NCBI GenBank assembly: GCA_041671505.1
Contig: JBAZBK010000014.1
Location: 20,395 to 84,394 of the forward strand
Direction: 5' to 3'
Length of the DNA: 64,000 nt
Source of the DNA: Thermoanaerobaculia bacterium
GTDB lineage: Bacteria > Acidobacteriota > Thermoanaerobaculia > Gp7-AA8
The notes beneath the pieces are model-generated. The model was given only the letters and a program-made list of their open reading frames with translations, was not told where the DNA came from and searched no databases. The position numbers were made by a program, and so were the translations under genes. Of the stretch, positions 3,995-52,062 are shown in pieces (position 1 is the first letter of the stretch; each line of letters starts with the position of its first letter).

Positions 3995-4160
3995 GTCATC
4001 CCGATGACCGAGTCCCGCGAAGCGGGACGAGGAAGGAGGGATCTCGCAGGCTGGTACAGATGAAGTTCAATGCTCCTGCTTCTGCTCGTGGCACATGAGT
4101 ACCAGCCTGCGAGGTCCCTCCTCCTTCCCCCGCTTCGCGGGGTCAGTCGTCGGGACGACA
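3995..4160. mobile_element. MITE-like palindromic repeat element, copy 1 (~165 bp, long imperfect inverted repeat)
   Basis: Left arm GTCATCCCGATGACCGAG...CGCGAAGCGGGACGAGGAAGGAGGGATCTCGCAGGCTGGTAC. Right arm GTACCAGCCTGCGAGGTCCCTCCTCCTTCCCCCGCTTCGCGGGGTCAGTCGTCGGGACGACA. A near-identical copy lies at 41564-41719 and related copies at 43348-43515 and 19150-19292. Sits between the amidohydrolase and the tricorn-like protease gene. Confidence 0.7.
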
Positions 4161-4280
4161 GCTCCATCGAGCGTCGCAACTGGCCGAGTCTCTCGGAAAC
4201 GCCGCTCGCAATGCCCTCTGCGTTCCGCCTCAACGCCTCCGCGCCTATACTGCTCGCCATCCAACGACGGAGGCCGCCCG

Positions 4281-7200: not shown

Positions 7201-7583
7201 TGATCAACGGCATGGCGGGAAGCGGCGGCGACGCGATGCCGTGGTACTTCCGGAAGATGAAGGTCGGTCCGCTGATCGGCACGCGCACCTGGGGCGGGCT
7301 CGTCGCGGCGAATCGCGGCCCGACGCTCATGGACGGCGGCTACTACACCGCGCCCGACGCCGCGGTCTACGGCCTCGACGGCAAGTGGGACGTCGAAAAC
7401 GCCGGCGTGCCTCCCGACATCGAAGTCGAGCTCGACCCCGCCGCATGGCGCGCGGGACACGACACGCAGCTCGAGCGCGCGGTGCAGTACCTTCTCGACG
7501 AGCTGGTGAAGAACCCGCGCACCGAGCCTGTGAGGCCGCCCTATCCGACGTACGACAGGTGCTGCGGGCTGAACGGGCAGTAG
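4281..7583 (+). CDS. Tricorn protease homolog: secreted TolB-like beta-propeller repeats fused to a C-terminal S41 (tail-specific) peptidase domain
   Basis: Signal peptide MKRLAALATMLFTTTLAAAG at the internal ATG (4281) of track ORF 4095..7583; upstream residues are translated repeat element. Many TolB/WD40-like SPDG/WSPDG blades. Lys/Asp/Glu-rich linker (DEEKGDEKKKGDDKDKAEESKKKGGDKEKADEKKPEP). C-terminal S41 peptidase region. Confidence 0.8.
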   Translation: MKRLAALATMLFTTTLAAAGEHTLYQEPTMSRTAIVFAYAGDLWSVARAGGTAVRLTTSPGVERTPRFSPDGSTIAFSGEYDGNVDVFVIPAAGGVPKRLTFHPGADAVVGWTSDGTRVLFHSSRESSAGYDRLFTVGLDGGLAEALPLPQAFEGSFSPDGTRIAYQPITKWQPDWKRAHGGQNGRIWIARLSDSSVEKMSWDGSNDVRPIWMGDSVYFISDRNSATGARSIFAWSPVTKQIRQVMKNDGLDVKSMSAGPDAIVYEQFGTIFVLDPATAVSKKVDIRVDGDFPGVRPRFVSVGDSLRSPRISPTGARAVFAARGEIVTVPAEKGDPRNLTNSPGVMERTPAWSPDGKWLAYFSDESGEYALHLRDQKGSGEVRKIVASDPPSFYFDPVWSPDSRKIAYADRRLNLWYVDVDKRTPVKVDTSEVGFTEAALEPAWSPDSQWIAWSKRTPNLMRAVFVHSIATGKTQQLTDGMSDVAFPVFDKSGKYLFVAASTDIGRGLSWADLSGIDSVSTRAVYGVVLRNDLPSPLAPESDEEKGDEKKKGDDKDKAEESKKKGGDKEKADEKKPEPVRIDFDGIGQRIVALPIAAANVRSIAVGKEGILFVAVTPPNHFGSDAESFDLRRFNLEKRKDESFLSGIKNFDISANGEKVLFRKGKKWTIASTDGEPKGDDGTLATDAVEVRVDPPAEWREMFRDAWLAERDHFYDPNHHGLDIEAAKRLYAPYLDAVAHRADLTYLFREMLNQLTIGHLFVGGGDIPEVDKVKGGLLGCDFAIENARYRFKRVFDGENWDPELRAPLTAPGVSVKTGDYLLAVNGRDLAASANVYAAFENTADKQVTIRVGPTADGKGARDVTVVPVDDEEALRHRAWIEGNRRKVNELSGGKLAYIYIPNTGNEGYTSFNRYFFSQTDKQGAVVDERNNQGGLLADYVVDYLTRPQLSAITFRYATRDVRVPAGAIYGPKAMLINGMAGSGGDAMPWYFRKMKVGPLIGTRTWGGLVAANRGPTLMDGGYYTAPDAAVYGLDGKWDVENAGVPPDIEVELDPAAWRAGHDTQLERAVQYLLDELVKNPRTEPVRPPYPTYDRCCGLNGQ

Positions 7584-8059: not shown

Positions 8060-8070
8060 TGCGCAGTAGT

Positions 8071-8196
8071 GGCCACGGCCTCTGGCCGTGGCGCGGAGGC
8101 CGGAGGCCTCCGCCACGAGGGGCCGCTCGTAGCCACGGCATCGCGATCGTGGCCACGGCCTCCGGCCGTGGCGCGGAGGCCGGAGGCCTCCGCCAC
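8071..8196. repeat. REP-like tandem: two copies of a 48-bp double-hairpin unit (GTGGCCACGGCCTCYGGCCGTGGCGCGGAGGCCGGAGGCCTCCGCCAC) separated by ~30 bp
   Basis: Each unit has two 9-bp-stem/3-nt-loop hairpins (GCCACGGCC/GGCCGTGGC and GCGGAGGCC/GGCCTCCGC). Lies between convergent genes (7586..8059 + and 8213..9739 -), so likely a bidirectional terminator or REP. The GGCCGGAGGCC core recurs in the lysC-upstream duplication. Confidence 0.6.
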
Positions 8197-8212
8197 TACG
8201 GACCACTCGCGG

Positions 8213-9739: not shown

Positions 9740-9774
9740 GAGGTCACCCCCAGCGACAGCGCTGCTGTCGAGTG

Positions 9775-9893
9775 AGAAACGACAAATGACAAATGACAAA
9801 GAGTGACTGCTCCGGGTCAGCAAAACCAGAAGCCTTGCGCTCCCAGTCTCTCTCCCCTTTCGTCATTTGTCATTCGTCATTTGTCATTCGTCT
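9775..9893. repeat. Heptamer-array-flanked cassette A: (CAAATGA/ACGACAA)n - 55-bp core - (TCGTCAT/TTGTCAT)n
   Basis: Left GAAACGACAAATGACAAATGACAAAG. Core GTGACTGCTCCGGGTCAGCAAAACCAGAAGCCTTGCGCTCCCAGTCTCTCTCCCC. Right TCGTCATTTGTCATTCGTCATTTGTCATTCGTC (4.5 heptamers). The arrays are reverse complements of each other. The right array encodes the last residues (..TQTNDK) and TGA stop of the STK gene 9877..12648. Coordinates +/-1. Confidence 0.7.
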
Positions 9894-19149: not shown

Positions 19150-19292
19150 GTCATCCCGAGCGTAAGGAGGGATCTGCTAACACATCAACTTGACCGCCCC
19201 CTTAGATACCACTCTCGCCACATCGTCACAGTTGCTGCTGGGGAACCGATCAGATCAAACGTTTAGCAGATCCCTCGCTTCGCTCGGGATGA
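19150..19292. mobile_element. MITE-like palindromic repeat element, divergent copy (arms GTCATCCCGAGCGTAAGGAGGGATCTGCTAA / TTAGCAGATCCCTCGCTTCGCTCGGGATGAC)
   Basis: ~30-bp inverted arms sharing the GTCATCCCGAGCG...GGGATC motif with the other copies, flanking a ~85-bp core. A partial direct duplicate of the arm start (GTCAGCCCGAGCGTAG) lies just upstream. Confidence 0.6.
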
Positions 19293-19331
19293 CGCGATCG
19301 CGGCTCGAACCTGCCCCTACTCCGCCGCGCC

Positions 19332-30802: not shown

Positions 30803-32168
30803 CATGATCGTCATCAAATTCGGCGGCACCTCGGTCGGCGAGACGAATCGCCTGCGACAGGCGATCGAGATCGTCGCCGAGCGACGCGACCGCCGTCCGG
30901 TCGTGGTCGTCTCCGCACTCGCCGGCGTCACGAACCAGCTCGTCGCCGCGACCGACGCCGCCGCCGCAGGGCGCTTCGAGGAGGCGCTCGCGCTCGTGGC
31001 CCGCATCCGCGAGCGCCACGAGGAGAGCGGCTTCGCCCTCATCGGCCAGAAGATCGATTTCTACGAATCGTTCACCGCGCAACTCGGCCGTCAGATCGAG
31101 CAGATCACCTCGGTGCTCCGCGGCGTCTCGCTCGTCGGCGAGACGAGCCCGCGCGCGAAAGATCTCGTCGTCGCCCTCGGTGAAAAGCTCTCGTCGGTCC
31201 TCTTCTCGTACGCGATGAGGACCAAGACCCTCACCGGCATCCACGTCGACTCGGGCGATGTCATCGTCACCGACGACCGCTTCGGGCAGGCGACGCCGCT
31301 CATGCCCGAGACGACCGCGGCGGCCGCGCACTCGCTCATCCCCGAGCTCGAGCGAAACCACATCCCCGTCATGGGAGGCTTCTTCGGCCGCTCCGTGTCG
31401 GGCGCCACGACGACCCTCGGCCGCGGCGGCTCCGACTACAGCGCCGCGCTCGTCGGCGCGGCGATCGGCGCCGAAGAGATCCAGATCTGGACCGATGTCG
31501 ACGGGATGATGACGTGCGATCCGCGCGTGATCCCCGCCGCGAAGGTGCTCGACCTGGTGACGTACGACGAGGCGGCGGAGCTCGCCTATTTCGGCGCGAA
31601 GGTGCTCCATCCGAAGACGCTCTGGCCCGCCGTCGACAAACAGATCGCGGTGCGCGTCCTCAACACGCACAACCCGTCGAGTCCCGGCACGTTGATCACC
31701 CGCGACGGAAAGCCGGGCGTCCACGGTGCGCGTGCGCTCGCGATGCGCAGCGGCATCACGATCGTGCAGATGACGACGACGAAGATGCTCGAGGAGTCGG
31801 GCTACCTCGCGCGTCTGTTTGACGTCTTCGGTCGGCACGGCGTCGCCGTCGACCTGGTCACGACCTCGGAAGTTTCCGTCTCGGCGACCGTCGACGATGA
31901 GAAGAAGATCGACGCCCTCGTTCGCGACCTCGCGCCGCTCGCCGCGATCGAGGTGATCCGTGATCGCGCCGTGATCGCGATCGTCGGCCGCGACCTCACG
32001 CGCGAGCCCGATGTCGCCGCGAAGCTCTTCGCGTCGCTGCACGGGATTCCCGTCTCGATGATGACTCTCGCCTCGACCGGGCTTAACCTGAGCATCGCGG
32101 TCGATGCATCGCGCGCCGACGAGGCGCTGCGGTCGATCCATCGCACGCTGTTCGAGGAGCACGCATGA
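30803..32168 (+). CDS. lysC: Aspartate kinase
   Basis: MIVIKFGGTSVG N-terminus, aspartokinase catalytic domain and two C-terminal ACT domains. 455 aa. The upstream part of track ORF 30360..32168 is non-coding repeat. Confidence 0.9.
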
Positions 32169-32845
32169 GAATCGCGCTTCATGGCCGGGGACGGATGGGA
32201 GAGCTCGTCGAGCGGATCGCCGCGGAACGAGGCCACGACGTCGCGGCGAGCTTCGACGTCGACGCGCCGATCTCCGCGGCGCGCCTGCAGGGAGTCGATG
32301 TCGTGATCGACTTCTCGCACGCATCTGCAATCGACGCCGTCGTCGACGCCTGCTGCGGCGGCGGCACGGCGCTCGTCACGGGCACCACCGGCTGGGACGA
32401 CCGGCGCGCAGCGATCGAGGCGCGCGTCCGCGACGCCGGAATCGGCTTCGTCGCGGCAGCGAACTTCTCGCCCGGCGCGACGATCGCTTTCGCGCTCGCG
32501 CGCGAGGCGGCCCGCCTCGTCGCGCTCTTCGGAGGCTACGAAGCGGGGATCGAGGAACGGCACCACTCGAAAAAGAAAGACGCGCCGAGCGGCACCGCAC
32601 TCCGCATCGCGAAGGAAGTGCGCGAAGGAAGCGACGGCGCGCTCGACCCGAAGATCGCGTCGTCGCGCGCAGGCGCCGAAGTCGGGCTCCACACGGTCTT
32701 CTTCGACTCGACCGACGACCTCGTCGAGATATCGCATCGGGCGCGCAGCCGCGAAGGCTTCGCCCGAGGGGCGGTGATCGCGGCCGAGAAGATCGTCGGC
32801 CGCGGCGGCGTCTGGCAGTTCGAGACGCTGGCGGCGGAGCCGTAG
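32165..32845 (+). CDS. dapB: 4-hydroxy-tetrahydrodipicolinate reductase
   Basis: N-terminal Rossmann region (MRIALHGRGRMGELV). Conserved E-x-HH-x-KxDxPSGTA motif (ERHHSKKKDAPSGTA). ATGA overlap with the lysC stop. Confidence 0.85.
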   Translation: MRIALHGRGRMGELVERIAAERGHDVAASFDVDAPISAARLQGVDVVIDFSHASAIDAVVDACCGGGTALVTGTTGWDDRRAAIEARVRDAGIGFVAAANFSPGATIAFALAREAARLVALFGGYEAGIEERHHSKKKDAPSGTALRIAKEVREGSDGALDPKIASSRAGAEVGLHTVFFDSTDDLVEISHRARSREGFARGAVIAAEKIVGRGGVWQFETLAAEP

Positions 32846-32854
32846 GGGCGCGGA

Positions 32855-33116
32855 GTTGTTAGTTGTTAGTTGTTAGTTGTTAGACATGACGCGAGAGGCG
32901 GGCCAGAGGCCAAAGGCCAGAGGCCAAAGCAGGCAGAGCATCGCAACGGCGTTCTCAAGGACTCGACGCTGTCGGTAAAAATGTGAGCCGCCGCACGTTC
33001 GGATGGCGCATCTACTGATACGTTACTTGATTGGATCGAACGACCCTCGACAACTAACAACTAACAACTAACAACTAACAACTAACAACTAACAACTAAC
33101 AACTAACAACTAACAG
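32855..33116. repeat. Heptamer-array-flanked cassette B: (TTGTTAG)x4 - ~170-bp core - (CTAACAA)x8
   Basis: Left GTTGTTAGTTGTTAGTTGTTAGTTGTTAGAC begins 10 bp after the dapB stop. Right CAACTAACAA(CTAACAA)n..CAGCCAACAGC ends 24 bp before the dapA ATG. The core has lower GC and an inner short tandem (GCCAGAGGCCAAAG x2). Confidence 0.75.
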
Positions 33117-33139
33117 CCAACAGCTCCCCAGGTGCACAC

Positions 33140-34039
33140 ATGATCGCTGACAAGTTTCGCGGGCTCGGTACGGCGCTGGTGACCCCCTTCAAGGCCGACG
33201 GGTCGATCGACGAGTACGGACTCGAGAAGCTCGTGACTCTCCAGATCGAAGGAGGCGTCGACTTTCTCGTGCCGTGCGGCACGACGGGAGAGAATCCGGC
33301 GCTCTCGGCGAGCGAGCATCTCCGCGTGATCGAGCTGGTGATCCGGCGCGCGAACGGCAAGGTGCCGGTGCTGGCCGGCGCGGGCAGCAACTCCACCGAC
33401 AAAGCCACCGACCTCGCTCTCGGCGCGCGCGACCTCGGCGCCGACGGCATCCTCTCGATCACCCCGTTCTACAACAAGCCAAACCCCGACGGCCTGCTCC
33501 GCCACTTCGAGACGCAGGCCGACGCGATCGACGACATGCCGATCATCCTTTACAACTGTCCCGGCCGGACCGGGCTCAACATGACCGCGACGACGACGCT
33601 TCGCATCGCGCGCGCGATCCCGAACGTCGTCGGCGTCAAAGAGGCGTCGGCGAATCTCGAGCAGATCCTCCAGATCCTCCGCGACCGGCTGAAGGACTTC
33701 CTCGTCCTCAGCGGCGACGACGCCTGGACGCTTCCCCTCATCGCGGCCGGAGCCGACGGCGTCATCTCCGTCGCCTCGAACGAGATCCCGCGGCTGATGA
33801 GCGAGCTGGTCGACGCCGCGATGCGCGACGACTTCGCCGCCGCGCGCCCGATCCACGAACGAATCCTCCCGCTCATGACCGGCAACTTCATGGAGTCGAA
33901 CCCGATCCCGGTCAAGGCGGCAATGAAGATGCTCGGCATCATCGACAACGACACCGTCCGCCTGCCTCTGGCGCCGATGTCGGACGAGAACTACGCCAGG
34001 ATGCGGGCGATACTGGCCGAATTGAGAATCGAGAACTGA
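33140..34039 (+). CDS. dapA: 4-hydroxy-tetrahydrodipicolinate synthase
   Basis: TIM-barrel DapA family with active-site Lys region (..NVVGVKEASANLEQ..) and GTTGE motif. The last six codons (ELRIEN) and stop are encoded by the first heptamers of cassette C. Confidence 0.9.
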   Translation: MIADKFRGLGTALVTPFKADGSIDEYGLEKLVTLQIEGGVDFLVPCGTTGENPALSASEHLRVIELVIRRANGKVPVLAGAGSNSTDKATDLALGARDLGADGILSITPFYNKPNPDGLLRHFETQADAIDDMPIILYNCPGRTGLNMTATTTLRIARAIPNVVGVKEASANLEQILQILRDRLKDFLVLSGDDAWTLPLIAAGADGVISVASNEIPRLMSELVDAAMRDDFAAARPIHERILPLMTGNFMESNPIPVKAAMKMLGIIDNDTVRLPLAPMSDENYARMRAILAELRIEN

Positions 34040-34174
34040 GAATTGAGAATTGAGAGAACGCAAACCGCAGGCTTCGCGAGCAGCCAGGGCTTGAGAATCT
34101 GAGATGGTCGAGCTCGCGGGTGAGAGCTCGCGCCTCTGCCATCTCTCAATTCTCAATTCCCAATTCTCAATTCC
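34019..34174. repeat. Heptamer-array-flanked cassette C: (GAATTGA/GAATCGA/GAACTGA)n - ~85-bp core - (TCTCAAT/TCCCAAT)n
   Basis: Left GAATTGAGAATCGAGAACTGAGAATTGAGAATTGAGAG overlaps the dapA 3' end. Right CTCTCAATTCTCAATTCCCAATTCTCAATTCCGC. The core has an internal palindrome (GAGCTCGCGGGTGAGAGCTCGCGCC). Same heptamer family as cassette H. Confidence 0.75.
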
Positions 34175-34197
34175 GCGATCCGAAGGAGCGCGTCACA

Positions 34198-35021
34198 TGC
34201 ATCCGACACAACAGAAGCTCGAATCTCTCGACAAGATCCACGACCGGATGGAGCAGGTCCGGATTCTCGGCCACTTCCTCGCCGATCTCGAGAAGGGGAT
34301 CATCCGCGCCGCCGAGCGCGGCGACGACGGCGTATGGGTAGCCCACGCCTGGGTGAAGGAGGGAATCCTCACCGCGTTCCGCATCGGCATCATCAACGAG
34401 TACGCCTCGGGGGCCCTCTCGTTCCTCGACAAGGACACGATTCCGCCGCGCCGCTTCCGGAAGGAAGACGGGGTGCGGGTCGTCCCGGGAGGCACCGCGG
34501 TGAGACGCGGCGCCCACATCGCGAAGGGCGTGGTGCTCATGCCCCCCTCGTACGTCAACGTCGGCGCCTTCGTCGACGAAGACACGATGATCGACTCGCA
34601 CGCCCTCGTCGGCTCGTGCGCGCAGATCGGCAAACGGGTCCACATCAGCGCAGCCGCGCAGATCGGCGGCGTGCTCGAGCCGGTTGGCGCTTTGCCGGTC
34701 GTGATCGAGGACGACGTGATCGTCGGAGGCAATTCGGGTGTCTACGAAGGGACGGTCGTCCGCCCGCGAGCCGTCATCGGCGCCGGCGTCATCCTCACTG
34801 CCTCGACCCCCGTCTACGACGCCGTTCGCCAGCAGGTCTACCGCCGCACCGCCGACCGGCCGCTCGAGATCCCTTACGGCGCCGTCGTCGTTCCCGGCAG
34901 CCGCCCCCTCACGAGCCCCTTCGGCATGGACAACGGCCTCCACATCTCCACCCCCGTCATCGTCAAGTACCGCGACGACAAGACCGACGCGGCGACGTTG
35001 CTGGAGGAGGCGCTGCGGTAG
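34198..35021 (+). CDS. dapD: 2,3,4,5-tetrahydropyridine-2,6-dicarboxylate N-succinyltransferase (DapD-like; left-handed beta-helix acyltransferase)
   Basis: Start MHPTQQKL with AAGGAG RBS 10 bp upstream. N-terminal helical DapD-type domain followed by hexapeptide repeats. 274 aa, the short DapD form. The N-acetyl-transferase DapH is not excluded. Confidence 0.7.
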
Positions 35022-35228
35022 GTCAGTGTTCAGTACTCAGTACTGAGTACTGAGTACTGAGTAAGGGCACCAGAGACGAGAGAAAAGAGAAGAGTTAAAA
35101 GTTGAGTTGACCGGGCTCCTCGGCTCCGCAACTCTTCACTCTTCTCTCTTCACTCTTCTCTCTTAACTTTTTCCGTCTTCCGTGTTCTAAACTCAGTACT
35201 CAGTACTCAGTACTCAGTACTCAGTACT
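35022..35228. repeat. Heptamer-array-flanked cassette D: outer (CAGTACT/CTGAGTA)n arrays enclosing nested element X with (AGAGAAG)/(CACTCTT CTCTCTT)n arrays
   Basis: Outer left GTCAGTGTTCAGTACTCAGTACTGAGTACTGAGTACTGAGTAAGG is itself a perfect palindrome. Outer right (CTCAGTA)x5 ends 6 bp before the aminotransferase ATG. Inner X at 35064-35172 is ~85-90% identical in its arms to 49934-50044. Confidence 0.75.
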
Positions 35229-35234
35229 AAAAAG

Positions 35235-36362
35235 ATGCGCCCCGCCTCCCGCTTCGCCTCGATCGATATCTCGCTCATCCGCAAGATGAACGCGATGGCG
35301 AAGCCGTCGACGCTCAACCTCGGGATCGGGGAGCCTAACGTCGAGCCCGATGCGGGGCTGCTCGCGATGGCGCGGGAAGCGGCGGGAGGCGATTGGCACT
35401 ACTCGCCGAACGCGGGCTACCGCTCGCTCCGAGAGAAGATCGCCGAGCGTCACGGCGGGACGTACGATCCGCGAGGCGAGGTCTGCATCACCGCGGGAAC
35501 GATGGAAGCGCTCTACGCGATCGCGCAGGGCTTCGTGGAGCAGGGTGACGAAGTGCTGGTGCCCGACCCGGGCTTCCTCGCCTATCCCGCGATCGCGACG
35601 CTCACCGGCGCCACGCCCGTCCCCTACCCGCTCGTTCCCGGAACATGGGACGTCGATCTCGACGCGCTCGCACGTCTCGTCACGCCGAAGACGAAGATGA
35701 TCGTCGTCAACACCCCGTCCAATCCCACCGGCGCGATCGTCCCGGAGGCGACGCTCCGCGCGATCGCCGCGCTGGGCGACGAGCGCGACCTCCTCGTCGT
35801 CTCCGACGAGGTCTACAGCGAGGTCTATTACGCGCACCGCCCGCCGTCGATGATCGGCATGGGGCGGAACGTCGTCGTCGTCGACGGCATGTCGAAGAGC
35901 CACGTGATGACGGGGCTGCGCATGGGTTGGATCCTCGCCCGCGCCGAGGTGATGTCGACGATTTACAAATCGCACCAGTACATCGCGACGTGCGCGTCGG
36001 TTTTCGCGCAGCAGTTTGCGGAGAAAATCCTGTCCGACTCGGAATGGAACGGCCGCTGGCTCGACGGCATGCGCGCCCAGTTCCGCGCGCAGCGTGACGC
36101 GCTCGTCACTGCACTCCGACGCGACGCCGGCATCGTGCTCGACCCACCTCTCGGCGCGTTCTACGCCTTCTTTCACGTCGACACCAACGACTCCCTCGCG
36201 CTTGCGACGAAAGCGGCGGCGGAAGCCGACGTGCTCGTGATCCCCGGCATCGCCTTCGGCGAACTGGGCGAAGGCTACCTGCGTGTCTCGTACGCCTCCG
36301 ACGTCGCCACGATCGACGAAGGTATTCGCCGCCTCGCGCCGTACATCAGGGGCGCGTCGTAA
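35235..36362 (+). CDS. Class I/II PLP-dependent aminotransferase (candidate N-succinyl-diaminopimelate aminotransferase, DapC-like)
   Basis: Aminotransferase fold with SKS-type PLP-Lys region (VVVDGMSKSHVMTGLRMGW). Positioned last in the lysC-dapB-dapA-dapD operon. The DapC assignment rests on context. Confidence 0.75.
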   Translation: MRPASRFASIDISLIRKMNAMAKPSTLNLGIGEPNVEPDAGLLAMAREAAGGDWHYSPNAGYRSLREKIAERHGGTYDPRGEVCITAGTMEALYAIAQGFVEQGDEVLVPDPGFLAYPAIATLTGATPVPYPLVPGTWDVDLDALARLVTPKTKMIVVNTPSNPTGAIVPEATLRAIAALGDERDLLVVSDEVYSEVYYAHRPPSMIGMGRNVVVVDGMSKSHVMTGLRMGWILARAEVMSTIYKSHQYIATCASVFAQQFAEKILSDSEWNGRWLDGMRAQFRAQRDALVTALRRDAGIVLDPPLGAFYAFFHVDTNDSLALATKAAAEADVLVIPGIAFGELGEGYLRVSYASDVATIDEGIRRLAPYIRGAS

Positions 36363-41428: not shown

Positions 41429-41563
41429 GCCAGGCGCAGTGTAGCGCGAGCGCCCTAACCCGACGAGACCGCCGTTCGGTTCGCCCCGGAGGGGCGCCGG
41501 ATAGTAGCCGGTGGCAAGCCGCGAGGCGGCGCCGCTCGCTTAATGTCGAGGAGCGTGCGGATC

Positions 41564-41719
41564 GTCATCCCGACGACCGAGCACCGCGAGGGAGGAGGGA
41601 TCTCGCAGGCTGGTACAGTCGAGGTTCGGCGCGAACTACCCGGCCAGTGGCACGTGAGTACCAGCCTGCGAGGTCCCTCCTCCTTCCCCCGCTTCGCGGA
41701 GTCAGTCGTCGGGACGACA
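41564..41719. mobile_element. MITE-like palindromic repeat element, copy 3 (near-identical to 3995-4160)
   Basis: GTCATCCCGACGACCGAGCACCGCGAGGGAGGAGGGATCTCGCAGGCTGGTAC ... GTACCAGCCTGCGAGGTCCCTCCTCCTTCCCCCGCTTCGCGGAGTCAGTCGTCGGGACGACA. It creates the spurious N-terminal extension of track ORF 41543..43261. Confidence 0.7.
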
Positions 41720-41812
41720 ACGCAAGCGTGCGTTAGCCAAACGTACCGCCGCTCCGCCCGAAAACCCGCTTCCGATCCGAATACTCCCGCTTCACGCCTC
41801 GTTGTCTCCGTC

Positions 41813-43261
41813 GTGATCCGAAGACTCGCCCTCGCTGCACTTCTCATCGCCCCGCTCGCAGCGACGCAGCAGATCGTCAAGCCCGACGCAGAGTCGATCC
41901 GCGCGTCGCTGCCGCAGCCGGAGAACCCGGTACGGATCACCCTCCGCCCGGCGGGGATCGTATTCGGCGACTACTCGCTGCCGGTCAGCGTGACCCCCGC
42001 GGTGGAGAAGGTGGTTCTCTTCATCAACGGAAATCGTCACTCCGAGGCGACCGGCCGTTCGATGGTCTTCCACGTCCGCATCGGCAAGTACCTTCGCCGG
42101 CTCCGCTTCCGGGTTGCCGGATATGACGCGGCCGGAAACGAGATCGGGAGCGACGAGGTCGTCATCAACGACCCGCAGCCGCCGTTCCGCGTTCGCGCCC
42201 TCGTGCCGGCAACGCTCCCCGGCGAAGGGCTCGCCCGCGTCTCCGCCGCGGTCTCGGCTCCCCCGACCGATCCGGTGCGCGAGGTCGAGTTCTTTCTCGG
42301 GGAGACCTCGCTCGGCACCGACCCTTCCGAACCGTACGAGGCGAGCTTCGACCCCTCGAAGTTCGAACCCCTCCCGGCGTACGTGCGGGTCACCGCGCGC
42401 TCGGCGTCGGGCAACGAGAGCCACGACGTCCGCTTCCTCGGGGGCGCCGCGGCCGAGCGGATGGACGTCCTCGTGCAGGAGATCCCGCTCTCTGTGAAGG
42501 GGCGCCTCTCCCGCCCGCTCGAAACGGCAGACCTGACCCTCATGGACTCCGGCGAGCCGCGTGCGATCGATTCCCTGCTGCGCGCGAGCGACCGGCCCCT
42601 GGACGTCATCCTGCTGATCGACTCCTCGCAGAGCATGCTCGAAGAGCTGCCCGTCGTGAAACGCGCGGCCGCCGGCTTCGCCCGCAGCATTCTCGGCGGC
42701 GGGAACCGGATTGCAGTCGTCGCGTTCCGCGAGCGGACGATCTGGCTCACCGGATTCACCGGCGACATCGCGACGGTCGAGCGCGCCCTCGATAGGCTCA
42801 AGCCGGAGGGACAGACTCACCTGTACGACGCGACGATCGAGATGCTCTACACGCTTCAGACGATGCCGGGCAGGCGCGCTCTCGTCATCCTCAGCGACGG
42901 GGTGAACGAAGGTGGAGACTTCGAGCTCGATCACGTCGCGCACTACGCGCGCTACTCGGGCGTGCCGCTCTATCCGATCATCCGGAACGGACTCCTGCTG
43001 AAGCTGAAGTGGATCCCGCTCGCGAAGTTCGACGCCGAGCGTTACGCGAAGATCGCGGAGTCGGCGGGTGCGTCGTACTTCCTGATCAGGAAGCCGGCCG
43101 AGCTCGAGGGGGTCTACAGGCAGATCGCGGACGAGCTGAAGAACCAGTACATCATGCGATTCAGGACAGAGTCGGACGGGCGCGACATCTGGCACTCGCT
43201 CGCGGTGAGCAGCTCGCGAGAGGGAATCACGCTCCGCGCGCCGCGGGGATATTTTCCGTAG
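41813..43261 (+). CDS. Secreted von Willebrand factor type A (VWA) domain protein
   Basis: Probable GTG start (VIRRLALAALLIAPLAA signal peptide), in frame with the track ORF and downstream of the repeat element. C-terminal VWA with MIDAS motif (DVILLIDSSQSM..) and the conserved T/D positions. Confidence 0.7.
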   Translation: MIRRLALAALLIAPLAATQQIVKPDAESIRASLPQPENPVRITLRPAGIVFGDYSLPVSVTPAVEKVVLFINGNRHSEATGRSMVFHVRIGKYLRRLRFRVAGYDAAGNEIGSDEVVINDPQPPFRVRALVPATLPGEGLARVSAAVSAPPTDPVREVEFFLGETSLGTDPSEPYEASFDPSKFEPLPAYVRVTARSASGNESHDVRFLGGAAAERMDVLVQEIPLSVKGRLSRPLETADLTLMDSGEPRAIDSLLRASDRPLDVILLIDSSQSMLEELPVVKRAAAGFARSILGGGNRIAVVAFRERTIWLTGFTGDIATVERALDRLKPEGQTHLYDATIEMLYTLQTMPGRRALVILSDGVNEGGDFELDHVAHYARYSGVPLYPIIRNGLLLKLKWIPLAKFDAERYAKIAESAGASYFLIRKPAELEGVYRQIADELKNQYIMRFRTESDGRDIWHSLAVSSSREGITLRAPRGYFP

Positions 43262-43347
43262 GGCGTCGTCGTGCCGGACGAGGAGAGGCTGGCGACATAC
43301 GGCTTCGGGATCGATGCTCGATCGAGCTGACGCGACCTGTACGACTT

Positions 43348-43515
43348 GTCGTTCCGAGAAGCGACCCCGCGAAGCGGGGGAGCGACGAGGAACCTCGCCG
43401 GCTGGTACATTCGCGCAACGAGCGAGAACGCCGGGGCGAGCAGACCTCATCTGTACCAGCCTGAGAGGTCCCTCCTCCCCGCTCCCGCTTCGCGGGATCG
43501 GTCGTCGGGACGACA
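43348..43515. mobile_element. MITE-like palindromic repeat element, copy 4 (divergent arms, same GGCTGGTAC...GTACCAGCCTGAGAGGTCCCTCCTCC core)
   Basis: GTCGTTCCGAGAAGCGACCCCGCGAAGCGGGGGAGCGACGAGGAACCTCGCCGGCTGGTAC ... GTACCAGCCTGAGAGGTCCCTCCTCCCCGCTCCCGCTTCGCGGGATCGGTCGTCGGGACGACA. 3' of the VWA gene. Confidence 0.65.
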
Positions 43516-43586
43516 AGTTGTGAGTGTCGCGCTCGAATCGAATTCATCTCGATCCGGCAAGCGCGCCCGCCTGCACTCCCCGCGCC

Positions 43587-44474
43587 CTAACGACCGCGTT
43601 TGATCGCGAGGCGAAGGGCGTTCCTGACCTCACCGAACATCGTCTCGGGTGCAACGCCGTCGTCGCGGTGACTCCACGCCTTCTTCGTCATCACCTCGAG
43701 CTTCCGCTCGTCGAGGACCTTGCCGTCGATCGTCGCGCCGTTCAGCTCGCAGAAGACGAGCAGAGAAACGAGCGCGACGCGGCGGTTGCCGTCCTTGAAG
43801 GGCCGGTCACGGAGAAGGCCCCAATAGAGCACCGCGGCCTTGTCGGAAAAGGCCTGGTAGGCCTCGCGACCAAGGAATGTCGACTGGGGGATCTGGACGG
43901 CGCGGACGAGCCCGAACTGCGACTCGACGACGCCCGGACTTGCATTGCGGCCGCCGATCTCGCGGTCGACTGCGATATGGAGCTCGACGAGCTCCTCGAC
44001 GGTCAGGTAGCGGATCCCGCTAGTCGGCGAGGCGACGGAGGGCGTCGGGGTACTTTTTGAGAGCCCGGGCGAAGGCTGCGGAGACGTCGGGGCGGAGACC
44101 GCCGCTGACGGCCGCGCCTTTGTTTCGGCTGTCGCCTGAGGCTGAGCCTTGGGCGCCGCTGCCTTTGCCACCGGCTGGGGCTGCGCCTTTGATGCCTTTG
44201 GCTGCGGGAGCGGCTTTGTCACCAGCTTTGACGGCGGGAGCGGCTTTGACCCCGCCTTTGACGGCGGGAGCAGCTTTGACACCGGCTTTGACGGCGGGAG
44301 CGACTTTGACGCCTTCTTTGGGGCGGACTTCGACTGGGGCTTTGACGGGTTTGGGGGGCTTTTCGGCTTTGGGGACGGCTTGGGCGACGACTTTTTTACC
44401 GCTTTTGCTGGTGGCCTGGCTTTTGAGGGCTTCGTGGCTACCTTTGGCGTGGCCTTTGCTTGCTTTTTTGCCAT
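43587..44474 (-). CDS. Doc/Fic-family (death-on-curing) protein with N-terminal Lys/Pro/Ala/Ser-rich histone-H1-like repeat region
   Basis: C-terminal Fic motif HIAVDREIGG...FKDGNRRVALVSLLVFCELNG. The N-terminal ~150 aa is low complexity (PPSKPVSKLLPPSKAGSKPLPPSKLVTKPLPQPKASK), encoded by ~33-bp tandem DNA repeats. Lys is mostly AAG as elsewhere in this genome; the overlapping alternative frame 44020..44481 uses AAA. Confidence 0.7.
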   Translation of the reverse strand: MAKKQAKATPKVATKPSKARPPAKAVKKSSPKPSPKPKSPPNPSKPQSKSAPKKASKSLPPSKPVSKLLPPSKAGSKPLPPSKLVTKPLPQPKASKAQPQPVAKAAAPKAQPQATAETKARPSAAVSAPTSPQPSPGLSKSTPTPSVASPTSGIRYLTVEELVELHIAVDREIGGRNASPGVVESQFGLVRAVQIPQSTFLGREAYQAFSDKAAVLYWGLLRDRPFKDGNRRVALVSLLVFCELNGATIDGKVLDERKLEVMTKKAWSHRDDGVAPETMFGEVRNALRLAIKRGR

Positions 44475-45123: not shown

Positions 45124-45140
45124 GGTCGAAGTCTTCGGGT

Positions 45141-45331
45141 GTCAGTTGTTAGTTGTCAGTTGTTAGTTGTCAGACAGAAGCAGTGGTCGCCATCGGTGTC
45201 ATCGTGCAGTCGTGATGAGAGAAAGTCCATGGGGCATGTCACGGTTTCGAGTGCGCGTCGCGATGGAGGCAACCGGGTGTCATACAACTCTGCCGCTGCC
45301 TATCTAACAACTAACAACTAAAAACTAACAA
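45141..45331. repeat. Heptamer-array-flanked cassette E: (GTTGTTA/GTTGTCA)n - ~130-bp core - (CTAACAA)n
   Basis: Left GTCAGTTGTTAGTTGTCAGTTGTTAGTTGTCAG. Right CTAACAACTAACAACTAAAAACTAACAACC. Same TTGTTAG family as cassette B with an unrelated core. Lies between the lhr stop and the start of the 91-aa ORF. Confidence 0.75.
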
Positions 45332-49884: not shown

Positions 49885-50118
49885 CGGAAGGCGAGGGGCG
49901 AGAGGCGATGAGCAACGGTAAGTGACGGAACGGCAGAGAAGAGTGAAAAGAGAGAAGAGAAGAGTTGAGAGTTGGGAGAGCCGGGCACCCTTGATGACGA
50001 GGTCAACTCTTCACTCTTCTCTCTTCACTCTTAACTCTTCTCTGCCTCCAGCTCCCGCGCTCCGGCTCATGCTCGCCCGCATCCGCCGACTCGCCTCTCG
50101 CCCCTCGCCTTTCGCCTC
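49885..50118. repeat. Composite cassette F: outer (GGCGAGG)n/(TCGCCTC)n heptamer arrays enclosing a second copy of nested element X (49934-50044)
   Basis: Outer left GGCGGAAGGCGAGGGGCGAGAGGCGATGAG. Outer right TCGCCTCTCGCCCCTCGCCTTTCGCCTCG. Inner X arms CAGAGAAGAGTGAAAAGAGAGAAGAGAAGAGTTGAGAGTTG / TCAACTCTTCACTCTTCTCTCTTCACTCTTAACTCTTCTCTG. Starts 15 bp upstream of the lhr start codon, in the divergent lhr/PDE promoter region. Confidence 0.7.
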
Positions 50119-50184
50119 GTGCTAGACACGGCCCCTCGCCACTGCAAGAATAGGTCGCACGACTTCCCACCGACGGACTACGCG

Positions 50185-50949
50185 ATGAGACTGAAAGTGC
50201 TGGGGGCCTACGGGTCAGCGGACGCGACGCATAACCTCACCGGTTACGTGATCGACGACCGCATCGCGATCGACGCGGGAACGCTCGGGTCGAAACTGAC
50301 GCTGCTTCAGCAGTCGAAGATCGAGATCGTCTTCGTCACCCACGTCCACGCCGACCACATCCGCGACCTGCCGACGCTGATCGAGAACCGCTTCCATTCC
50401 GATGCCGCGCCGCTCGAGGTCGTCGCCGAGAAGAGCGTCATGGAGATGCTCCATGCCGACCTCTTCAACGGAAGAGTCTGGCCCGACTTCGAGAAGTTCT
50501 CGTCGCCTCACACGGGGAAGGCGGCGGTCCACTACCGGGCACTCAGCGCGGGCAAGCGGACCGTGATCGCGGGGGCGGCGTTCACCGCGGCGCTCGTCGA
50601 CCACACCGTTGCGACGGCGGGCGCGATCATCGAGCTCGGCGGGCAGGCGATCGCCTTCACCGGCGACACCGGGCCGACTGCCGCGATCTGGAAGAAAGTG
50701 AACAAGACACCCGGCATGGTCGCGATGATCAGCGAGGCGTCGTATCCGAACGACTTCGCCACGATCGCGAAGGAAAGCGGCCACCTGACTCCCGAGCTGT
50801 TCGGCGCGGAGCTCGCGAAGATCGAGGTCGACGCCCCGCTCTACGCGAGCCACCGGAAGCTCCCCTACGAGCGGAAGATCGAGTCGGAGATCCGGAACAT
50901 CCGCGACCGCCGGGCACGGATCCTCGTCGAGAAGCAGTACACGTTCTGA
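50185..50949 (+). CDS. Class II 3',5'-cyclic-nucleotide phosphodiesterase-like MBL-fold hydrolase
   Basis: Start MRLKVLGAYGS (ATG 50185). Metal-binding motif VTHVHADHIRDLP and downstream His/Asp ligands of the CpdP/PDE class II family. 254 aa. Confidence 0.7.
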   Translation: MRLKVLGAYGSADATHNLTGYVIDDRIAIDAGTLGSKLTLLQQSKIEIVFVTHVHADHIRDLPTLIENRFHSDAAPLEVVAEKSVMEMLHADLFNGRVWPDFEKFSSPHTGKAAVHYRALSAGKRTVIAGAAFTAALVDHTVATAGAIIELGGQAIAFTGDTGPTAAIWKKVNKTPGMVAMISEASYPNDFATIAKESGHLTPELFGAELAKIEVDAPLYASHRKLPYERKIESEIRNIRDRRARILVEKQYTF

Positions 50950-51102
50950 AGAATTGAAAATTTGAAATTGAACATTGAAGCTTGAACGCGGGCCAGGCAG
51001 ATCCACCCGCGGAATGTTGCGCCCTCCCCGGGAGGTTGACCGCGACGCCAGAAGCGCGATTCGTGCCTCCCGGCTCTTTTCAATTTTCAATTTTCAATTT
51101 CG
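50948..51102. repeat. Heptamer-array-flanked cassette G: (GAATTGA/AAATTGA-like)n - ~90-bp core - (TTTCAAT)x3
   Basis: Left GAAGAATTGAAAATTTGAAATTGAACATTGAAGCTTGAA starts at the PDE stop codon. Right TTTTCAATTTTCAATTTTCAATTTC ends 4 bp before the GT2 ATG. The core has a CCTCCCCGGGAGG palindrome. Confidence 0.7.
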
Positions 51103-51105
51103 CCC

Positions 51106-51957
51106 ATGCCAAGACCTCGAATCAGCGCACTCGTCACGACGTACAACGAAGCCGAGCACGTGGAGCCATGCCTCCTCTCGCTCGAGTGGGCCGACGAGAT
51201 CGTCCTCGTCGACTCGTTTTCCAACGACGGCACGGCCGAGCTCGTCCGCGACCGCTTCCCGAAGGTCAAGTTCATCCAGCGCGAGTACCTCGGCTCCGCC
51301 GCGCAGAAGAACTTCGGCCTCGACTCGGTCTCGAACGACTGGGTCCTGGTCGTCGACGCCGACGAGCAGGTCACCCCGGAGCTGCGCGACGAGATCCTCC
51401 GCGTCCTGGAGGAAGGGCCGAAGTACTGGGCCTACTGGATCGGCCGATCGAACTTCGTTCTCGGCAAACCGGTGCGCTACAGCGGGCTCCAGCGGGACGG
51501 CGTCCGCCGTCTCATGCACCGGAAGAACGCTCGCTACCCGAACCGCCGCGTCCACACCGACCTCGCGGTCAACGGCCCCGTAGGACGCCTGCGCGGCAAG
51601 TTCAAGCACCTCTACATCCGCTCGTTCGACCACCAGGTCGAGAAGATGACGCGCTACGGTCTCTGGGGCGGCACGCAGCTCCACATCGAAGGGCGCGAAG
51701 TCTCGGCACCCGGAATCCTCGGCCACTCCTTCGCCCGCTTCTTCCGCGACTACGTCGTCAATCTCGGCTTCCTCGACGGAGCCCCCGGTCTCATCACCGT
51801 CGGCCTCCACACCTTCTACACCTTCTGGAAGTACTCCAAGCTCTGGGAGTTCAACCGCCTCAAGGAGCAGGGCAGGGCGCCGAAGCTCCCGAAGATCGAG
51901 ACCGATGAGGAAGTGTGGAAGATGCCTTGGGAAGAGGACGAAGGAGAGACGAATTGA
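51106..51957 (+). CDS. Family 2 glycosyltransferase
   Basis: N-terminal GT-A fold (ISALVTTYNEAEHV...DEIVLVDSFSNDGT...VVDADE DxD). The last three codons (ETN) and stop lie in cassette H. Confidence 0.8.
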   Translation: MPRPRISALVTTYNEAEHVEPCLLSLEWADEIVLVDSFSNDGTAELVRDRFPKVKFIQREYLGSAAQKNFGLDSVSNDWVLVVDADEQVTPELRDEILRVLEEGPKYWAYWIGRSNFVLGKPVRYSGLQRDGVRRLMHRKNARYPNRRVHTDLAVNGPVGRLRGKFKHLYIRSFDHQVEKMTRYGLWGGTQLHIEGREVSAPGILGHSFARFFRDYVVNLGFLDGAPGLITVGLHTFYTFWKYSKLWEFNRLKEQGRAPKLPKIETDEEVWKMPWEEDEGETN

Positions 51958-52062
51958 GAATTGAGAATTGAGAGACATAAAAGAGATATCAATTAGAGAC
52001 TGTTACCGTAGTCAATAATTGAGAATCGTTTCACGTCTCTCAATTCTCAATTCTCAATTCCG
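51951..52062. repeat. Heptamer-array-flanked cassette H: (GAATTGA)x3GAG - 60-bp AT-rich core - CTC(TCAATTC)x3
   Basis: Left GAATTGAGAATTGAGAATTGAGAGAC. Core ATAAAAGAGATATCAATTAGAGACTGTTACCGTAGTCAATAATTGAGAATCGTTTCACGT (~33% GC). Right CTCTCAATTCTCAATTCTCAATTCC. Lies between convergent GT2 and sigma-54 RR genes; the arms are near-perfect reverse complements. Confidence 0.75.

Follow-up and report, generated by a model that had tools for sequence, protein, structure and literature searches.

Paired heptamer-array cassettes in the last three spacers of a lysine-biosynthesis operon of an uncultured Thermoanaerobaculia bacterium

Among the long simple repeats of bacterial genomes, heptamers are over-represented the most, and their origin and function have gone unexplained since 1990 (short tandemly repeated repetitive sequences, STRR) and through the studies of 2007-2015 (Mrazek; Rehm et al., PMC4692102). 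Paired arrays have been described in Xanthomonas campestris and X. axonopodis, whose genomes contain 70-75 convergent pairs of GGGAATC arrays (Rehm et al. 2015, PMC4692102). Approximately 90% of these pairs are intergenic and lie near the 3' end of the upstream open reading frame (ORF); they occur mostly between co-directional genes, less often between convergent genes and least often between divergent genes (PMC4692102). Their locations are common to related genomes, their length and sequence vary, most of them are transcribed, and their function is unknown (PMC4692102). Here, we analyse a 64-kb stretch of DNA (the window; 66.4% GC) from an uncultured member of the Thermoanaerobaculia (Acidobacteriota), which contains eight cassettes (A-H) built from paired heptamer arrays. 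Three of them, B, C and D, occupy the last three spacers of the lysine-biosynthesis operon lysC-dapB-dapA-dapD-aminotransferase. Literature searches found no such elements described in Acidobacteriota. We put at roughly 0.45, somewhat short of even odds, the probability that B, C and D are members of a class of old intergenic palindromes found throughout the lineage, whose hairpins act on the read-through mRNA.

The Xanthomonas pairs are the closest precedent for these cassettes. In both systems, tandem heptamers lie close together on opposite strands with the G-rich strand running inward; moreover, the cassettes at the six co-directional junctions of the window also start near the end of the upstream ORF, and the junctions that hold B, C and H are kept in related genomes, with varying length and sequence. 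However, the Xanthomonas pairs belong to one G-rich family prone to G-quadruplex (G4) formation, whereas at least 14 mostly AT-rich families are found here. There are no G3 tracts in the units TTGTTAG, GAATTGA, CAGTACT and AGAGAAG, and only a GGGACGT cassette in the related locus L063 is rich in G tracts. Further differences from the Xanthomonas pairs are the core lengths of 24-170 nt, nesting in two or three layers, the occupation of consecutive junctions of one operon, and the overlap with stop codons; the two systems also come from different phyla. Thus, the cassettes share every structural feature of the Xanthomonas class except the G4-prone unit, and they add to it many mostly AT-rich families, long cores, nesting, clustering, the donation of stop codons and a stronger conservation of arms than of cores.

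Other described repeats resemble the cassettes in part. Like the cyanobacterial STRR (GGGGAYT) and the TAACTGA repeats of Beggiatoaceae, the cassettes contain intergenic 7-nt arrays of several heptamers per genome (PMC4679880, PMC4692102), often abut start or stop codons, carry stops in all three frames in the forward orientation, and have shorter repeat-free spacers as counterparts in related genomes. STRR and TAACTGA repeats are nearly always single direct arrays (169 direct sets vs 1 inverted in BOGUAY, and few pairs in Nostoc; PMC4679880, PMC4692102), whereas inverted pairing is the rule here. The Correia elements of Neisseria (Correia repeat enclosed elements, CREE, or Neisseria miniature insertion sequences, NEMIS) and other MITEs (miniature inverted-repeat transposable elements) likewise lie in intergenic DNA, measure 100-280 nt and are bounded by inverted terminal arms (PMC2649163, PMC2229807, PMC10969869). 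CREE/NEMIS are co-transcribed with their neighbours, form hairpins and vary in presence and absence between relatives (PMC2649163, PMC2229807, PMC10969869), and CREE offer a functional model for cleavage or protection by ribonuclease III (RNase III). In contrast to CREE, which possess a conserved core, TA target duplications and 26-bp terminal inverted repeats, the cassettes have tandem heptamer arms of variable copy number and unrelated cores, and no target duplication was seen; of the features that define MITEs, terminal inverted repeats are present and a shared internal sequence is absent. Repetitive extragenic palindromic (REP) sequences and bacterial interspersed mosaic elements (BIMEs) of enterobacteria and pseudomonads are also extragenic palindromes at gene 3' ends or between cistrons, are often clustered, and are proposed to function in mRNA stabilisation, termination and DNA topology (PMC3733652). 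Unlike the cassettes, REPs are GC-rich single palindromes of 20-40 bp that carry a GTAG/CGTC tag and are linked to RAYT (REP-associated tyrosine transposase) proteins (PMC3733652); neither this size nor the tag is found in the 110-280 nt cassettes, whose ends are different heptamers that have no tetranucleotide in common. Finally, the palindromic microsatellites and double-hairpin elements of fungal and algal mitochondria are intergenic short-repeat palindromes that are optional between close species (PMC7218506); they are associated with indels and suspected to be mobile or to serve as transcript-processing sites (PMC7218506). They differ in being organellar, AT-rich throughout and of another unit structure, and the likeness implies no homology. 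Set beside these systems, the lineage analysed here offers many heptamer families side by side, often nested, in an essential conserved operon with comparable orthologous junctions. It also provides several handles on such repeats, namely slow arms with drifting cores, the polarity of G toward the centre, clustered junctions and the turnover of a heptamer at a fixed junction.

The genes of the operon were identified by NCBIfam profile matches (Table 1). As the initial annotation had stated, lysC and dapB overlap as ATGA (32165-32168), and each of the last three spacers of the operon (294, 157 and 213 nt) is filled almost entirely by one cassette of a different kind, which was confirmed by arrays detected with Tandem Repeats Finder (TRF) and by inverted repeats. 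All cassettes share one design, in which two tandem heptamer arrays, the 3' one built from the reverse complement of the 5' unit, flank a unique core. The 5' arm of B begins 10 nt past the dapB stop codon, and its arms show 100% complementarity over 30 nt (a perfect 30-bp stem); within the B core (32884-33049, 166 nt), the sequence GGCCAGAGGCCAAAGCAGGC of an orphan array called module Y recurs in two cassettes of the related locus L062. The arms of C are 81-86% complementary and enclose a core of approx. 88 nt. The outer arms of D are 89-100% complementary, with a stem of 25-38 bp, and a second element, X, is nested between them. The dapA stop codon lies inside the 5' arm of C, so the final dapA codons are encoded by the repeat, which specifies the tail ELRIEN-stop. 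The C-terminal tail of DapA is repeat-encoded in all four close genomes (the window and L002-L004, see below) and is different in relatives with approx. 67% DapA identity.

Table 1. Cassettes, arrays and operon genes in the 64-kb window (MFE, minimum free energy; z, folding z score)
Feature	Position	Strand	Description
lysC (aspartate kinase)	30804-32168	+	TIGR00657, 359 bits; first gene of the operon
dapB (4-hydroxy-tetrahydrodipicolinate reductase)	32165-32845	+	TIGR00036, 123.7 bits; stop TAG 32843-32845
Cassette B, whole predicted hairpin (dapB/dapA)	32852-33129	+	inverted repeats; MFE -100.9 kcal/mol, z = -6.7
B 5' arm, four perfect TTGTTAG units	32856-32883	+	TRF score 60, 100% matches
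Orphan array GGCCAGA/GGCCAAA (module Y) in B core	32901-32929	+	TRF; without inverted partner
B 3' arm, 9.4 CTAACAA units	33050-33115, decaying to 33124 (CTAACAG, CCAACAG)	+	TRF score 132
dapA	33140-34039	+	TIGR00674, 325 bits; stop codon 34037-34039
Cassette C, whole predicted hairpin (dapA/dapD)	34016-34176	+	42-nt arms, 81% complementary; z = -5.6
C 5' arm, GAATTGA-type, 5.3 units	34019-34055	+	TRF
C 3' arm, TCAATTC-type, 4.3 units	34144-34173	+	TRF
dapD (tetrahydrodipicolinate N-succinyltransferase)	34197-35021	+	NF008808, 300 bits; tblastn matches of relatives begin at residue 1
Cassette D, nested predicted hairpin (dapD/aminotransferase)	35021-35231	+	MFE -100 kcal/mol, 55 long-range pairs
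D outer 5' arm, [C/G]AGTACT-type	35021-35063	+	TRF 35032-35063; array detection
Element X nested in D	35069-35104 (AGAGAAG-type), 24-nt loop, 35129-35168 (CTCTTCA-type)	+	33-nt arms, 85% complementary
D outer 3' arm, 5.4 ACTCAGT units	35191-35228	+	TRF score 76, 100% matches
Pyridoxal phosphate (PLP)-dependent class I/II aminotransferase (putative DapC-type)	35235-36362	+	NCBIfam subfamily/equivalog matches, all under cut-offs
Cassette A, TGACAAA family	9774-9888	-	co-directional: Ser/Thr kinase gene, then acyl-CoA dehydrogenase gene
Cassette E, TTGTYAG/CTAACAA (family of B)	45138-45328	-	co-directional, after Lhr helicase gene
Cassette F, AGGCGAG arms with nested X	49890-50117	.	between divergent Lhr helicase and MBL-fold (metallo-beta-lactamase) genes
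Cassette G, ATTGAAA family	50953-51100	+	co-directional: MBL-fold gene, then GT2 glycosyltransferase gene
Cassette H, GAATTGA (family of C)	51951-52060	.	between convergent GT2 and sigma-54 response regulator genes

Folding predictions give each cassette a long hairpin with 19-55 long-range pairs; the predicted energies of B, C and D are -101, -74 and -100 kcal/mol, and z scores in the window and in the better-kept orthologues range from -5.6 to -9.6. Folding of the six co-directional junctions from stop codon to start codon places the outermost predicted pair within -2 to +3 nt of the stop, with 5-41 nt remaining to the start; in B, this pair is located at the stop codon and precedes the ATG by 10 nt. 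With the hairpin looped out, the distance left between stop and start is 9 nt for B, 23 nt for C, 9 nt for D, 6 nt for G, 14 nt for E and 39 nt for A, and these distances match the spacers found in cassette-free relatives. Because long hairpins are predicted for every cassette, effects at the mRNA level are plausible, and the same holds, on these models, for transcriptional read-through combined with such effects. In particular, the operon would still be transcribed through as a single mRNA, as suggested by the ATGA overlap and by the tight or overlapping junctions in relatives. The hairpin would loop out the insert, such that the stop and the next start would stay 6-39 nt apart and downstream initiation would be kept; the fold would also sequester the C-rich 3' arm, and Rho would not encounter a long exposed stretch of untranslated RNA. 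As the analogy with Correia elements and REPs suggests, perfect stems of 25-38 bp may be cut by RNase III or may block 3'-exonucleases, which would yield cistrons of differing stability. Correia elements are co-transcribed hairpins that are bound or cut by RNase III (PMC2649163), and on this analogy the cassettes are probably RNase III or decay-barrier sites. Once an insert is present, selection against unfolding would keep the arms conserved while the cores drift, and slippage would produce perfect arrays of changing copy number. If hairpins do hold stop and start together across an insert of 150-280 nt, compact operons could tolerate, and then come to depend on, inserted DNA.

The initial annotation had also considered promoter or ribosome-binding functions embedded in the cassettes, by which each dap gene would be expressed from its own cassette. 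This is very improbable. The sole sigma-70-like match in the 6.4 kb scanned (TTGAGA-17-GAGAAT, 34022-34050, in the 5' arm of C) is weak and points into the hairpin, and for dapA and dapD the Shine-Dalgarno sequences are situated beyond the arms, just past the stems, and are predicted to be unpaired. For dapD, the AAGGAG previously singled out as the only clear Shine-Dalgarno sequence is present at 34183-34188 (+), outside the C hairpin, and has GGAGGAG/AGGAGA as its counterparts in relatives; however, dapA too has a partial one (AGGTG, 33130-33134, 5 nt upstream of the ATG), and it is the aminotransferase alone that, on sequence inspection, has none before its start, the ATG standing 6 nt past cassette D. 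This last gene would suit expression from a cassette, as would the ability of Correia elements to create promoters (PMC2649163). The distances from the last perfect heptamer unit to the next ATG (24 nt for B, 23-24 nt for C and 6 nt for D) agree with the 24, 24 and 6 nt reported earlier. The 3' arms differ between junctions, and between genomes at one junction, so no common signal exists; moreover, cassette-free relatives keep the same gene order with tight junctions. No intrinsic terminator (U-tract) was found on the + strand at the 3' ends of B, C and D, where the arms are followed by CAGCTCCCC, CGCGATCC and AAAAAG, respectively.

The presence of a known RNA in the cores was considered and rejected. 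No Rfam model, the lysine riboswitch included, matched the 64 kb at its gathering score (microRNA-hairpin matches at E<=1 were far below threshold), and the search of the window for tRNA and tmRNA gave no match. A further point against a riboswitch or a small RNA is that orthologous cores are not conserved.

The history of the dap junctions was followed in related loci. A DapA scan of a genome collection gave six loci, all from metagenome-assembled genomes (MAGs) of Thermoanaerobaculia/Acidobacteriota, of which L002-L004 show 91-92% and L005-L007 approx. 67% DapA identity. Four more loci of matching gene order, at 59-68% identity, came from a DapA scan of metagenomes, along with one more distant hit, L070 (39%). 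Gene order was compared in L005-L007 and L066-L069 besides L002-L004, with L070 left out. The order lysC-dapB-dapA-dapD-aminotransferase is kept in 9 related loci, and the aminotransferase is the final gene of the conserved cluster in all relatives. The junctions of the distant relatives range from overlapping genes (dapD/aminotransferase in L005 and L066) to spacers of approx. 100 nt, with approx. 1.3 kb at dapD/aminotransferase of L068, and the dap junctions of the relatives at approx. 67% and of those from metagenomes (<=68%) contain no heptamer arrays, except for a small hairpin in L006. Small heptamer hairpins occur elsewhere in distant dap loci, namely in L005/L066 and, upstream of lysC, in L068. 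The one in L068 (3726-3813; DapA identity 66%) is GC-rich, consists of GCGAGCA x4, a 28-nt loop and TGCTCGC-type units, and lies 19 nt before lysC; the dap cluster thus attracts such elements in more than one lineage.

In the close relatives, the dapB/dapA junction holds a TTGTTAG cassette in L004 (approx. 6 and 16 units) and in L002 (7 units in the 3' arm), and one of another heptamer in L003 (TGAGTSC/GGACTCA, approx. 5 and 13 units), with an unalignable core. The dapA/dapD junction holds an orthologous, partly decayed GAATTGA cassette in L002, L003 and L004, and a variant unit of C, CCCAATTC/CCCGATTC, is found at the same position in all four genomes. The copy number of the arrays varies between genomes and the units stay perfect (for B, 4/9.4 in the window vs approx. 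6/16 in L004). Four-fold degenerate sites are only 52-60% identical among the window and L002-L004, of which L003 is the most distant. Since B and C stand at the same junctions despite this divergence, they are not recent independent hits, and it is most parsimonious to assume that both predate the split of the four close genomes. No cassette D is found at dapD/aminotransferase in L002-L004; an ORF of 603 aa lies there instead (L002 2083-3900, L003 7876-9687, L004 7860-9680), which resembles a multi-pass membrane protein and has no Pfam match. By gene-order comparison, this ORF is absent from the window, L005-L007 and L066-L069, and a search of D and of the rest of the window revealed no remnant of the relatives' 1.8 kb gene. 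The parsimonious reading of these sequences is that the 1.8 kb gene disappeared from the window's lineage at the place now taken by D; D is lineage-specific and would have arisen later than B and C.

Taken together, these comparisons suggest that the operon was compact in the ancestor and that the cassettes were inserted into its very short spacers or grew within them. The repeated independent insertion proposed in the initial annotation therefore stands only in part: alignment with related dap operons shows short or empty junctions at approx. 67% identity, in agreement with insertion or expansion, but B and C are already present in the relatives at 91-92% and were inherited, and only D is lineage-specific. 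Conversely, the ancient fixed structure that had been named as the opposite possibility applies partly to B and C, which persist at 52-60% four-fold identity; D is exempt.

A second comparison is provided by L062, in which GT2 is 89% identical to that of the window and four-fold identity is 0.60. Cassette H is orthologous there, with conserved arms, and the G junction is empty (a 9-nt spacer). The junction equivalent to F contains other heptamers, with outer arms of GGCCARA and inner arms of AATGTCG/AATGAAG/AATGAGG, and the variant units of these inner arms are mirrored one by one in both arms. Template-switching at quasi-palindromes is known from E. coli genetics, and it could account for such mirrored variants. 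Two further sites of L062 carry heptamer families of the window, namely ATTGAAA (19.5 kb) and AGGCGAG-TGAGCA-GGCCARA (18.1 kb), and L063 (73% identical) carries its GC-rich GGGACGT cassette at the position of the ATTGAAA cassette of L062. A heptamer can turn over at a fixed junction. Dating the nested layers from the perfection of their arms was attempted and abandoned: the outer layer looks younger in D and B and the inner one in the F-equivalent cassette of L062, and slippage can renew arrays, which makes arm perfection unusable for this purpose.

The conservation of arms is seen best in C, for which the mean pairwise identity among the four genomes is 0.81 in the 5' arm, 0.75 in the 3' arm, 0.51 in the core and 0.55 in the 3' flank. 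Compared with neutral sites, the arms thus evolve slowly and the core does not. This conservation is real and may act via RNA, DNA or protein binding.

Several observations weigh against hairpins that act on the mRNA. Folding energies show no consistent bias, favouring the sense strand for A, neither strand for E and G, and the antisense strand, by approx. 7 kcal/mol, for B, C and D, so nothing points specifically to selection on the sense RNA. Single-side changes in the arms of C yield G.U on the sense strand nearly as often as A.C (8 vs 7), and both results count mildly against strong sense-RNA selection. C has decayed in L003 (z = -2.3), which indicates that any constraint is not absolute. 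Moreover, the cassettes between divergent (F) and convergent (H) genes escape the arguments from coupling and polarity, and stems flush with stop and start codons are partly trivial if the ancestral spacer was tiny. Finally, the study of the analogous Xanthomonas pairs found no regulatory role (PMC4692102).

Some of this evidence would suit a role at the DNA level, in which the arrays bind a nucleoid-associated or sequence-specific protein, or cruciform and other non-B structures affect supercoiling or transcription. DNA-level roles have been proposed for BIMEs and for the G4-forming GGGAATC repeats. Here, the primary sequence of both arms is conserved with little compensatory turnover (only 2 of 31 arm pairs of C have changed on both sides), no G.U bias exists on the sense strand, divergent and convergent positions are occupied, the polarity described below is symmetrical on both strands, and most arms form AT-rich patches in the otherwise GC-rich genome. 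Nevertheless, such a role appears improbable: the heptamers fall into at least 14 families that range from 13% to 79% GC and would need many binding specificities, spacers of 24-170 nt are generally known to disfavour cruciform extrusion, and no candidate binding protein was identified.

The wider set of cassettes places B, C and D in context. All eight are intergenic or overlap only the final codons of a gene. In A (stop codon at 9877-9879), C and H, the 5' arm contains the stop of the upstream gene, and it is H that gives the GT2 gene its stop. The cassettes measure 110-280 nt, with 3.3-9.4 units per arm and arms of 23-75 nt that are 81-100% complementary; each has its inverted partner within 24-212 nt, and the orphan GGCCARA array at 32901-32929 is the only array without one. 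The second copy of X, in F (49935-50040), has a 29-nt arm identical to that in D and a different core. The whole window contains 19 period-7 arrays of at least 21 nt, whereas 100 simulations under a first-order Markov model gave 1.2 on average and 4 at most, and period 7 is far above all other periods from 5 to 11. Most arrays are 19-44% GC vs 66.4% for the window. Occupied junctions fall into three groups of neighbours (A; B-C-D; E-F-G-H), an arrangement with P = 3-8 x 10^-4 for 45-55 junctions, and the cassettes thus cluster locally. Six occupied junctions are co-directional, one is divergent (F) and one convergent (H), which looks like the usual mix of junction types; the preference for intercistronic junctions put forward in the initial annotation is contradicted by F and H.

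The cassettes are not an assembly artefact: the independent Logan contig L001 carries an identical dapA with the same repeat ends of B and C, and the same junctions hold cassettes in four other MAGs. L001 is a 1,079-nt contig that contains dapA alone, with both ends inside cassettes B and C, and it illustrates the practical nuisance that cassettes break short-read assemblies. Many homologues of the GT2 gene (51106-51957) are likewise found on contigs of 1-2 kb, which may reflect assembly breaks at flanking cassettes.

The distribution of the cassettes also bears on the view that they are purely selfish or neutral, MITE-like non-autonomous mobile DNA that survives harmlessly in intergenic sites and plays no part in dap expression, which we hold to be rather unlikely. 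Such DNA would explain the presence or absence of G and D and the absence of B and C from the 67% relatives, the small vocabulary of arms common to loci and genomes (TTGTTAG, GAATTGA, ATTGAAA, AGGCGAG, GGCCARA and X), the nesting of cassettes, the encroachment on gene 3' ends with the supply of stop codons, the occupation of every junction type, and the clustering of occupied junctions, which resembles local hopping. However, elements alike in their arms (B/E, C/H and the two X copies) are unrelated in their cores, unlike copy-and-paste MITEs; blastn of all cores against approx. 200 kb of window and relatives found only the X arms and an AGGCGAG module in common. No direct repeat is visible at the cassette borders. 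Comparison of the filled G site (TGA AG[...]TCGCCC ATG) with the empty site of L062 (TAG CCCGTTCCA ATG) also shows no duplication, in genomes that have diverged, and no transposase was found among the genes adjoining cassettes, to which the scan was limited. Moreover, the arms of C and H are conserved well above the neutral level, and AT-rich arms persist in a 66% GC genome. A copy-and-paste MITE was rejected, as the blastn comparison found no shared cores and no target-site duplication was seen.

Viral contigs were scanned for the same arms. The pattern TTGTTAG x3 matched 51 contigs, mostly of low GC and with unpaired arrays, which made these matches uninformative, and the X-arm pattern matched 3 contigs, again with unpaired arrays. 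An exception among the 51 is an unrelated GC-rich contig, L030 (IMG/VR 3300001533_002218, 66% GC), where a paired cassette at 195-305 consists of 5-6 TTGTTAG units, a 38-nt core and CTAGCAA/CTAACAA units; the differences between its arms are U.G wobbles on the strand shown.

The arms follow a strict polarity. G exceeds C in the 5' arm and C exceeds G in the 3' arm of every independent heptamer family (14 of 14, p = 1e-4); because the arms are reverse complements, the rule holds on both strands, with G-rich strands directed to the centre from either side. Stop codons have no C, and they are confined to the 5' arm in 9 families vs 1 (p = 0.02). This bias fits the survival of insertions that truncate gene ends, as in dapA, dapB of L004, GT2 and the kinase gene. 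The Xanthomonas GGGAATC pairs have the same polarity without stop codons, however, so stop codons are not the whole explanation.

Polarity is likewise central to the idea that the cassettes are not transposons but repair scars left by a telomere-like healing, in which templated or slippage synthesis polymerises a heptamer onto both 3' ends of an intergenic break and the ends are joined over filler DNA. The orientation of the G-rich strands, which point 5'->3' to the centre in all 14 families and also in Xanthomonas (PMC4692102), unrelated cores inside the same arms, nesting, the coincidence of D with the loss of a 1.8 kb gene that left no remnant, and arrays that replace gene 3' ends would all be consistent with it. 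An end-addition process, if true, would offer a single account of G polarity, unrelated cores, nesting, the replacement of a gene by D, and the 7-nt units. This idea is nonetheless entirely speculative and highly unlikely: no candidate for the enzyme or its template was found, and the mirrored order of variant units (inner arms of the F-equivalent in L062, outer arms of F in the window) fits inverted duplication or correction by template switching better than it fits separate additions at two ends.

Other features of the window were noted. A motif conserved in three genomes, (C)TGGACAC-N13-TGCAAGAATAG (window 50112-50150, L062 9160-9200, L063 4225-4265), lies just outside F on the upstream side of the MBL-fold gene, and the cassettes leave it intact; by its sequence, it is likely a sigma-70-type promoter (TGGACA-17-AAGAAT). 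The MBL-fold gene itself (50185-50949), which is flanked by F and G, has orthologues in L062 (9227-9991) and L063 (4316-5080), and its relatives are annotated as Anti-Pycsar_Apyc1 (PF23023) besides Lactamase_B_2. Three repeats are of other kinds. At 8066-8199, within a 629-nt intergenic gap, a GC-rich unit of approx. 80 nt occurs twice, each copy with the short palindromes GCCACGGCCTCYGGCCGTGGC and GCGGAGGCCGGAGGCCTCCGC; this element is REP/BIME-like and unrelated to the heptamer cassettes. At 19150-19293, in a 525-nt intergenic gap, an inverted repeat with 31-nt arms (GTCATCCCGAGCGTAAGGAGGGATCTGCTAA; 90% complementary) and an 82-nt spacer resembles a conventional MITE-like element. At 43331-43531, downstream of the gene at 41543-43261, a nested palindrome that is not made of heptamers has outer arms of 48 nt (79%) and inner arms of 26 nt (85%). 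Immediately beyond, a 295-aa protein (43587-44474, minus strand) possesses an N-terminal half rich in Lys, Pro, Ser and Ala that derives from 30/60-nt tandem repeats (44194-44394), and a putative Fic/Doc-like motif (RPFKDGNRRVAL) in its C-terminal part was recognised by eye. Finally, an 18/39-nt tandem repeat (GAAGAAGAAGGGCGACGA...) at 5902-6005, within an ORF of 1162 aa (4095-7583), encodes a low-complexity stretch rich in Lys, Glu, Gly and Asp.

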